The position numbers are program-made. Shown here in pieces: positions 24,001 through 27,000 of a stretch of DNA of 64,000 nt (position 1 is the first letter of the stretch; each line of letters begins with the position of its first letter). Location: NCBI RefSeq assembly GCF_050920415.1, contig NZ_CP169309.1. One strand, given 5' to 3'. This DNA comes from Escherichia coli (lineage in GTDB: Bacteria > Pseudomonadota > Gammaproteobacteria > Enterobacterales > Enterobacteriaceae).

Positions 24001-27000
24001 TTGCGCTTCATGACCATTGCCACAATAAGGCTGAGTAAGAGCGCGCCAATAATCCATACCAGAGCACGACTGCCCTGGGACCACAGACTGTAGATGAAGC
24101 CAACGATCACCAACAACATAACCAACGTGCCAACGATAAGAATCGGCAACGAGGCATGGATATCATGACGCAGGCGGATCGCCACCACAAACACCGCCAG
24201 GTAGCAGATCAAAAAGGTGGCACTGGCAACGCTGGCGAGTGAGCCTAAATTTAGCGCCGCCGTCATCAACATAATCAACACCACGACGATGATGTTGCCC
24301 CAGGTACTCTGCCGCCACAGAGATTTATTCATTAGCTTCGGCAGTTCGCGTTCGCTTCCCATGTTGTCCATGATGTTAAACACGGCGAACAGGTTCGCGT
24401 TGATGGCTGAAGCCGTCGCCAGTAAAGCACCGATGACAACGATCACATAACCCACATGCCCGAGGAGCGGAGATGCGGCCTGCGCTACGGCGGTATCGGC
24501 ATATTTTTCTAACTCTAATGCCGATACATCGCTAAGCAGTACCAGCGCCAGCGAGATATAAAGCAACGTGGTAACGCCAATCGCCACCAGAAACGCCCGT
24601 GGCATAATGACCGCCGGATCTTTCACTTTATCCGCCGCGTTCGCCATCATGCCAAAGCCCGCATAGGCAAGGAAGGTTATCCCGATACAGGAGAAGAACG
24701 CACCGGAGCTGGGAGGCGCAGAGACGGAAATATGCGCCGGTTGTAGCGACCAGACACCGGCAATAATCAGCAATAACAGGATCATCATTTTAATGCCGAC
24801 GAGGATCACTTCCAGCCGTCCTACCGCATGGTTGCTTAAGGAGTTGAATAGCGTCATCACCGCAATGATCCCCAACGCGTAGAGCAGAATAAGGTGCTCC
24901 TCCTGGCTGCCTTCATGCAAAAACTGCACGGCATAAGCGCCAAAAGCACGGGCGACCATGGCGATGCTTACCGCCAGCGTCAACAGGTACAGTAACGAGA
25001 GCGCCAGCGAAAAGACGCCGTTGCCTAATCCGCGACGAAAGAAGTCGATAATACCGCCATTGCTGGGATAGCTCGCCCCCAGACGCGCATAGGCATAACC
25101 AGAAAACATCGCCACAATACCACCAAAAGCAAAGGCGACCCAGGTCGAGGCTTCCATTAGCAACGCAGCCTGCCCCAGCAGCGCGAAGATCCCCGCCCCC
25201 ACCATTGCCCCAATGCCAATGGAAACGACGTTCCATAGACCGAGGGGTTTGTTACCGTTATTACCTTCCGTGTTCATCATGATCAGCCCTTAAACACGTT
25301 ATAGCCGAGTTGCTTAGCGACCGATGCCACCATTTTTTGACCGCGAACACTATTGCCTTCTTCGTCCAGCGGTGGTGAGAACGCGGCAATTCCCATCACA
25401 CCAGGAACGACCGCCAGAATACCGCCACCTACACCGCTTTTGCCCGGTAAACCAACGCGATATGCCCAGTCACCGGAGCGACCATACAGCCCTTCCATCA
25501 TCATTTCGGCCAGAATGTACGGCACATTGTCGGCCTGAAGAACGCGTTTATGCGTCAGCGGATTCACTCCGCCCGCCGCCAGCGTCGCGCCAAGCGTTGC
25601 CAGTTCAATAGTATTGATGAGCGTGGAGCACTGACGGGTGTACACGTCACAGGCTTCCATTGCATCACAATAGAGATATCCGGCGGAGTACAGCAGCCAG
25701 GCAATGGCCCGGTTATGGAAGTTGGTTGTTTGTTCCGACTGGTTGACTTCATCAGAGAGCGCTACCTGCTCACCAGCCAGTTGTTGTTGGATATGTAAAA
25801 TTCGCTGCCAGCGTTGTTCGGCATTTTCAGCGTTAATCAGGCTGGTGGTGGCAATAGCGCCAGCATTTACCAGTGGCGAAAGCGGTTTGCCGCCATGCAA
25901 CTCTAAGGCGATAACCGAGTTAAAGGGCAATCCGGTCGGGTCAGCGCCAATTTTGTCCTGTACCGCCTGCGGGCCGACATCTTCTAACGCGAGGGCTAAC
26001 GTACAGACTTTTGAGATGGATTCCAGCGCAAAGCGGTAATCACTGTCACCCGCGCTAAAGACTTTACCATCGCAGGTCACGATAGCCACTGCCGCCAGTT
26101 GACTGGGCACATTCGCCAGAAAGGGAATGTAATCGGCATTTTGTCCGCCGTTAAGTGAGTGAAATTGGGTGTAAGCCTGATCCACTGCCTGCTGTAATGT
26201 GTTTGCATCTAACATCTTTTGTTAACTCCTTTTTATAGATGCGGGAGGGGATTCCTCACCCTGGTGCCGATTTTCAGGCATCCTGATTTAACTTAGCACC
26301 CGCGACTTAACTACAGGAAAACAAAGAGATAAATGTCTAATCCTGATGCAAATTGAGCCGATTTTTTAATCTTTACGGACTTTTACCCGCCTGGTTTATT
26401 AATTTCTTGACCTTCCCCTTGCTGGAAGGTTTAACCTTTAACACAGTCAGTCAACACTGTCTTAAAGGAGTACGTTATGTCACAAACTATCGACCTGACC
26501 CTGGACGGCCTGTCCTGCGGTCACTGCGTTAAACGCGTGAAAGAAAGTCTCGAACAGCGCCCGGACGTTGAGCAGGCGGATGTGTCTATCACTGAAGCAC
26601 ACGTTACGGGTACTGCCAGTGCAGAACAGCTGATCGAAACCATCAAACAAGCGGGTTATGACGCATCTGTAAGCCACCCAAAGGCTAAACCGCTGGCGGA
26701 GTCATCAATCCCGTCGGAAGCACTGACAGCGGTTTCTGAGGCGCTTCCGGCAGCAAACGCCGATGACGATGACAGCCAGCAGTTGCTGCTGAGCGGCATG
26801 AGCTGCGCCAGCTGTGTCACCCGCGTACAAAATGCGCTGCAAAGCGTACCGGGCGTCACTCAGGCACGGGTAAACCTGGCGGAGCGTACTGCGCTGGTGA
26901 TGGGCAGTGCCTCTCCACAAGATTTAGTGCAGGCGGTGGAAAAAGCGGGCTACGGCGCGGAAGCGATTGAAGATGACGCTAAACGCCGCGAGCGCCAGCA

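Follow-up and report, generated by a model that had tools for sequence, protein, structure and literature searches.

The copA promoter of the window, the 64-kb stretch of Escherichia coli DNA analysed here, is the canonical CueR-dependent promoter PcopA. With high confidence, we conclude that CueR acts on it in trans from beyond an O-island 28 (OI-28)-type cluster, that this island is ancestral, that the K-12 type of junction arose by deletion, and that the copper circuit is intact. The promoter (textbook PcopA) and the island (OI-28, characterised experimentally in 2025) are both already known, and the correction of polarity is modest. The features on which this account is based are listed in Table 1.

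Table 1. Features of the copA-cueR region. Positions are those of the window; negative numbers lie to the left of its first letter
Feature	Position	Strand	Evidence
-35 hexamer TTGACC of PcopA	26407-26412	+	sequence reading; same as K-12
CueR operator, perfect dyad ACCTTCC-N7-GGAAGGT	26410-26430	strand-neutral	0 mismatches; same as K-12
19-bp spacer, MerR-type, over-long	26413-26431	+	counted; mechanism PMC8169799
-10 hexamer TAACCT of PcopA	26432-26437	+	sequence reading; same as K-12
copA RBS AAGGAG	26465-26470	+	sequence reading
copA, Cu(I)-exporting P-type ATPase	26477-28981, ATG 26477	+	ORF, NCBIfam, RefSeq annotation
glsA (ybaS), glutaminase A	25283-26215	-	divergent from copA; ORF and RefSeq
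ybaT, APC-family permease	23988-25280	-	RefSeq annotation
Intrinsic terminator after ybaT, 11-bp stem and T tract	23952-23978	-	terminator scan
Candidate RstA box TAATTCAAATTTCC upstream of tolC28	23931-23944	-	agrees with the mapped O157:H7 box at 13 of 14 positions
tolC28, TolC-family T1SS outer-membrane component, first island gene	22295-23650	-	Pfam OEP; TIGR01844, 411 bits; RefSeq
siiEA, intact 6924-aa BapA-related/RTX-type giant adhesin	1412-22186	-	ORF; RefSeq 'BapA-related adhesin SiiEA'
T1SS ABC permease/ATPase (LssB-type), 3' part in window	1-1408, continues left (L001 13439-15601)	-	TIGR03375; RefSeq
MFP, HlyD-family adaptor	-1926 to -751 (L001 12267-13442)	-	TIGR01843; RefSeq
cueR	-2330 to -1923 (L001 11863-12270; record 3,691,862-3,692,269)	-	RefSeq annotation

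The copA promoter and its operator

The region at 26400-26476 consists of the CueR-dependent copA promoter and its 5' leader. The dyad, which reads ACCTTCC-CCTTGCT-GGAAGGT in full, has a 7-7-7 layout and is centred in the spacer. The sequence-only reading had described an intact CueR operator within a 19-bp spacer; the operator was found to be exact and identical to that of K-12, but it is not wholly inside the spacer, its first 3 bp being also the last 3 of the -35 hexamer. In a motif search allowing up to 2 mismatches, the dyad was the sole match in the whole 64 kb, compared to a chance expectation of 0.16 matches and to 16 of 100 shuffled sequences with at least one match. On their own, these statistics are modest. 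The decisive evidence for the predicted identity of the promoter is its 100% identity with K-12 from the -35 through the -10 hexamer. The whole glsA-copA intergenic region aligned with that of a K-12 derivative at 98% identity over 265 bp, and the few substitutions were located in the 5' leader past the -10 hexamer and further upstream. The copA product matched the NCBIfam equivalog NF007952 with 1748 bits (cut-off 1316).

The generic sigma-70 scan reported no promoter at PcopA, because it takes spacers of 16-18 nt and the MerR-type spacer is 19 nt long. A scan of the whole window against Rfam gave no match within 22-30 kb. The K-12 promoter is said to have been described in 2000 by Outten, in 2001 by Stoyanov and in 2015 by Philips as a 19-bp-spacer promoter under the control of CueR, a Cu(I)-responsive activator of the MerR family. 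In the window strain, the CueR dimer would likewise bind the 7-7-7 dyad straddling the spacer, and Cu(I)-loaded CueR would kink and undertwist the DNA, so that the two hexamers, despite their unusual spacing, would become usable for sigma-70 RNA polymerase. In K-12 this mechanism is established: the dimer on the dyad bends the 19-bp spacer and the sigma-70 holoenzyme engages both hexamers (PMC8169799, cryo-EM; PMC1526738). Copper-dependent activation of copA in the window strain is something that we infer from sequence identity with K-12 only.

The idea that the dyad arose as a palindrome by chance, or that the promoter has been freed from CueR control in the window strain, has a negligible probability. 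The proportion of shuffled sequences with a match at 2 mismatches would speak for a chance palindrome; however, the dyad is exact, and the stretch from -35 to -10 does not differ at any position from the experimentally characterised K-12 promoter (PMC8169799, PMC1526738). A loss of CueR control is contradicted by the presence of an intact cueR in the genome, the product of which has the same protein accession as in K-12.

Location and integrity of cueR

When CueR was used as the query in a tblastn search of the window, no cueR was found anywhere in the 64 kb. In a record that was 100% identical to window 21800-26480 (NZ_CP169399.1, strain MFDS1022581), the RefSeq annotation places the gene approximately 1.9 kb to the left of the window start, beyond the island. 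Record positions are obtained by adding 3,694,192 to the window position, and positions in the source locus (L001) by adding 14,193. The ybaT stop and the cueR start were 25,910 bp apart, compared to 124 bp in the island-negative K-12, and PcopA was 28.3 kb away from cueR, compared to 2.5 kb in K-12. It had been proposed from the sequence that cueR, which follows ybaT directly in K-12, would be found on the far side of a T1SS island occupying that position here, or elsewhere. These measurements bear out the first of the two: a TolC-family gene and the gene for the 6924-aa adhesin take the place after ybaT, and cueR is present beyond them in an order colinear with K-12.

The CueR protein has the accession WP_001026747.1 both here and in K-12. 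It matched the equivalog NF007590 with 308.6 bits (cut-off 244), and the Cu(I) ligands Cys112 and Cys120 are present. The larger distance between cueR and PcopA should not matter, CueR acting in trans, and the copper circuit of the window strain is predicted to be intact.

Gene order and identity of the island

The genes ybaT, tolC28, siiEA, ABC, MFP and cueR follow each other in this order on the minus strand. An overlap of 4 bp joins the ABC gene to the MFP gene, and another of 4 bp (ATGA) contains both the stop codon of MFP and the ATG of cueR. The island is approximately 26 kb long and has a G+C content of 57-62%, compared to 49-55% in the flanks, and so must once have been foreign DNA. 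From its gene content it is assigned to OI-28 (tolC28, siiEA, ABC and MFP), with all four components on one strand. The adhesin has been named siiEA in strain UMN026 (PMC3256949), and earlier comparative papers list OI-28 as a lineage marker.

OI-28 has been described as an RstA-activated, Ca2+-responsive T1SS/RTX adhesin system that is needed for early adherence (Niu et al. 2025, PMC12758282). Its role in adherence and colonisation was shown for O157:H7 and O145:H28 only (PMC12758282). The candidate RstA box in the window coincides in position with the published box of O157:H7, at -294 to -280 (PMC12758282). That paper speaks of the 'acquisition' of OI-28 and makes no mention of cueR, ybaT or the K-12 remnant described below (PMC12758282).

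The K-12 junction

Comparison of K-12 with the source locus by blastn gave two homology blocks 2 bp apart, and K-12 was found to lack L001 12366-38152, that is 25,787 bp. The block on the cueR side extends over the start of cueR and covers a further 95 bp within the MFP gene. Thus the unoccupied site is not free of island sequence: the 124-bp gap of K-12 holds approximately 95-98 bp of the MFP 3' end, corresponding to the last ~32 codons in a frameshifted form, and RefSeq calls this stretch a frameshifted pseudogene without its N-terminus. Translation of the gap gives VVAVDIRTGKKT, a frameshift and then VLEYLLKPFNKAQEALRER*, and the intact MFP ends in ...MVATVDIRTGKKSVLDYLLKPFNKAQEALRER*.

This C-terminus is kept in homologues that likewise have a total length of 391 aa and are 70-85% identical, among them those of Pseudocitrobacter, Enterobacter, Citrobacter, Kluyvera and Erwinia, and it aligns up to the very end of the TIGR01843 model. 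The neighbourhoods of the three nearest homologues were inspected and all were at unrelated chromosomal sites: the homologue is beside cho and ymgB-family genes in Pseudocitrobacter faecalis and in one further genome, and it adjoins an EAL-domain gene in Enterobacter cloacae. Because the C-terminus is conserved at unrelated loci and is within TIGR01843, the 98 bp in K-12 are a genuine MFP scar. On the strength of the same two observations, we reject the idea that the C-terminal 32 codons of MFP were recruited from native DNA upstream of cueR at insertion.

The other end of the missing segment lies at approximately 23957/23958, inside the descending arm of the ybaT terminator. In the window the terminator folds with -20.9 kcal/mol (z = -7.2), compared to -7.6 kcal/mol (z = +0.8) for the K-12 sequence. 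The K-12 remnant, in which the 3' arm is gone, folds no better than shuffled controls, and no minus-strand terminator was predicted between ybaT and cueR in K-12. Since the K-12 gap holds the MFP 3' end and the terminator of ybaT has lost its 3' arm, K-12 is a deletion derivative.

Distribution of the island and of the K-12 junction

In a set of 5426 complete E. coli genomes, tolC28 was found beside ybaT in 958, and the K-12 junction was spanned by a single alignment in 4458 (82%). The latter include ST131, K-12 and other laboratory strains; approximately 10 genomes were in other states. A decayed island was found in E. coli SCPM-O-B-8794, with fragments of tolC28, siiEA and ABC and with MFP residues 19-374, followed by cueR.

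Other species were surveyed by a YbaT-guided scan with one genome per species. The island was present at the ybaT-cueR site in E. whittamii and in Escherichia sp. E1V33, and Escherichia sp. MOD1-EC7003 had a K-12-type junction. In E. albertii the ybaT-cueR gap is 189 bp long; its last ~55 bp are like the MFP 3' end (80% identity), and this remnant is in frame (...NKLQEALRER*) and overlaps the cueR ATG. The ~130 bp upstream of the MFP-like stretch matched nothing in the source locus with the island. Judging from this remnant, the E. albertii gap is a scar independent of that in K-12. The non-coli evidence for an ancestral island comes from a handful of Escherichia genomes, including one of E. 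albertii and none of E. fergusonii. In Edwardsiella and Hafnia, glsA-ybaT was found without copA, cueR or a T1SS nearby.

Insertion, deletion and regain

In the simplest history, copA and cueR would have been separated by the arrival of the glsA-ybaT module and of the T1SS cluster at a time when E. coli and E. albertii had not yet split. At least two losses of the cluster would have followed, of which that of the K-12 type became the majority allele. Most E. coli, K-12 included, would carry one and the same 25.8-kb deletion, which left ~98 bp of MFP and destroyed the ybaT terminator, and the window strain would keep the older, island-bearing state. The island had been read from the sequence as an insertion into the ybaT-cueR junction. 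This does not hold relative to K-12, whose site bears the MFP scar and half of the ybaT terminator; as an ancestral event the insertion is probable, and it probably took place between ybaT and cueR in the ancestor of E. coli and E. albertii, because Salmonella has a plain copA-cueR divergon and close MFP homologues are at other loci elsewhere.

It is very improbable that the K-12 junction is an ancestral empty site into which the island was inserted in the lineage of the window strain. The absence of the island from 82% of complete E. coli genomes, its G+C content above that of the flanks and the 'acquisition' of OI-28 in the literature (PMC12758282) would agree with such an insertion. However, a site that the island never entered cannot contain island sequence, and therefore the frameshifted last ~32 codons of MFP at the K-12 junction argue against it, together with the truncated ybaT terminator. 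The same is true of the island at the identical site in E. whittamii and Escherichia sp. E1V33 and of the independent scar in E. albertii. Moreover, no tRNA gene was found by a scan of the region, no integrase or transposase is annotated in it, and a base-by-base reading of the deletion junction showed no flanking direct repeat.

A possible, though on the whole unlikely, course of events is that presence and absence of the island form an old polymorphism shuffled by flank recombination, the window strain or its phylogroup having regained the island from another Escherichia lineage. A regain is compatible with the deletion scar, and the K-12-type junction of the non-coli Escherichia sp. MOD1-EC7003 would fit it. 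Within the 200 bp surrounding the start of cueR, the divergence between island and scar alleles is 5-7%, compared to 0-2% among scar strains, and the tolC28-ybaT-glsA segment of the window is only ~95-96% identical to that of every other island-bearing E. coli. High divergence of this kind may, however, simply reflect an old vertical split.

Transcriptional context of cueR

The sigma-70 scan predicted no promoter within the 430 bp upstream of cueR in the island locus, nor in the 124-bp gap of K-12. For a mapped transcription start of cueR, the literature gave only an intragenic sigma-54 site in K-12 ybaT (PMC4591121); it was set aside here, the motif having 3 mismatches in the window. In island strains, the order and overlaps of the genes suggest that the tolC28-siiEA-ABC-MFP array ends with cueR. 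The ybaT terminator was removed by the deletion in the K-12 type, in which cueR would thus have become the tail of the glsA-ybaT transcript. This terminator loss fits the ybaS-ybaT-cueR operon predicted long ago for K-12 (PMC1526738) and the interplay of YbaST and CueR reported in acid and copper resistance (PMC9628877).

A more speculative reading, to which we give a low probability, is that cueR is tied by transcription and translational coupling to the RstA/Ca2+-activated tolC28-siiEA-ABC-MFP operon in island strains, and to the acid- and copper-responsive glsA-ybaT transcript in the K-12 type. The dosage of CueR, and hence the copper set-point, would then follow adhesion signals in some lineages and acid-resistance signals in others.

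Implications

The ybaT-cueR and cueR-ybbJ junctions of K-12 look like deletion scars. OI-28 would be better treated as an ancestral Escherichia locus lost by most E. coli than as a gain of EHEC, which alters the reading of its distribution among pathotypes. The deletion of the ybaT terminator offers a structural reason for the predicted glsA-ybaT-cueR operon, and also for the cross-talk that has been reported between the resistances to acid and to copper (PMC9628877). As cueR abuts hlyD28 in island-bearing pathogens, the expression of cueR needs to be controlled for whenever mutants lacking OI-28 or hlyD28 are constructed. If the two lineages do differ in what drives cueR, a change in its expression could have contributed to the published colonisation phenotypes of ∆OI-28 and ∆hlyD28 strains.

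Comparison with known systems

In EHEC O157:H7 EDL933, OI-28 comprises tolC28 (z0608), rtxA28 (z0609), rtxB28 (z0615), hlyB28 (z0634) and hlyD28 (z0635). The gene set, order and strand of the island in the window, its site between ybaT and cueR and the 4-bp overlap of MFP and cueR are all as in O157:H7. In contrast, the adhesin is one intact ORF of 6924 aa here, whereas that of O157:H7 is split or annotated as a pseudogene, and the DNA identity to the O157 alleles is approximately 95%. Salmonella has the regulator and the CueR-type operator in common with the window strain; there, however, copA and cueR form a plain divergon, adjacent and divergent, without glsA-ybaT (PMC1526738). In Escherichia the two genes are kept apart by the glsA-ybaT module and by the T1SS cluster or its scar.

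A second indel on the ybbJ side of cueR

A second indel was found on the other flank of cueR, between ybbJ and cueR and to the left of the window. This 3.8-kb segment (features and coordinates are listed in the table) is present in the source genome and missing from K-12. A GCCT microhomology was found at the junction of the indel, and the TAA stop of its 407-aa gene corresponds to the end of ybbJ in K-12. E. albertii and Escherichia sp. MOD1-EC7003 also have the 407-aa gene next to cueR, with amino acid identities of 89% and 79%, respectively. Therefore, K-12 cueR appears to have a deletion scar on either side.

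Immediately 5′ of cueR, the C-terminus of MFP, the HlyD-family adaptor, reads KAQEALRER in Escherichia, compared to KA[R/K/N]EALRER in all MFP homologues elsewhere among the matches listed. The Gln codon CAG gives rise to an AGGAGG sequence 13 nt ahead of the ATG of cueR, which possibly reflects adaptation to the translation of cueR.

Features of the cueR region (L001 is the source-genome locus that extends to the left of the window; L009 is a locus of Escherichia sp. MOD1-EC7003)
Feature	Position	Remark
ybbJ-cueR segment	L001 8027-11857	absent from K-12
120-aa hypothetical protein		within ybbJ-cueR segment
338-aa protein		within ybbJ-cueR segment; YadA anchor domain
two small ORFs		within ybbJ-cueR segment
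407-aa hypothetical protein		within ybbJ-cueR segment; no Pfam match
MFP C-terminus	L001 12271-12300	just 5′ of cueR
siiEA	window 1412-22186	one unbroken ORF, 6924 aa
sigma-54 site position in ybaT	window 24535-24551, - strand	CTGGCGCTGGTACTGCT
copA-ybaP spacer	window 28982-29409	unrelated to K-12 counterpart
glsA	L009 9768-9995	only residues 1-46 and 266-310 matched

Divergence within ybaT and downstream of copA

K-12 ybaT carries a sigma-54 binding site inside the gene (CTGGCACTGGTTTTGCT; PMC4591121), at a distance of 679 bp on the upstream side of cueR. The same position in the window has three mismatches to the K-12 site, and the -12 element is changed from TTGC to CTGC. The K-12 copA-ybaP spacer contains a REP-element cluster and ybaQ, encoding a HigA-family antitoxin. 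Inside the window spacer lies an unannotated dispersed repeat of approximately 270 bp, which occurs in 2-8 copies per genome in virtually every E. coli and had no match in Rfam.

Reduced loci and integrity of the adhesin gene

Shortened or decaying versions of the island were observed in E. whittamii and E. coli SCPM-O-B-8794. The adhesin locus of E. whittamii spans just ~6.6 kb, with a tolC28 that is 70% identical. In SCPM-O-B-8794, tolC28, siiEA and the ABC gene remain as fragments only, and a truncated MFP adjoins cueR. A large internal part of glsA seems to have been deleted in Escherichia sp. MOD1-EC7003.

In contrast to the intact siiEA of the window strain, that of O157:H7 bears a pseudogene annotation, with a frameshift and an internal stop, in agreement with the split into rtxA28 and rtxB28 studied in EDL933.
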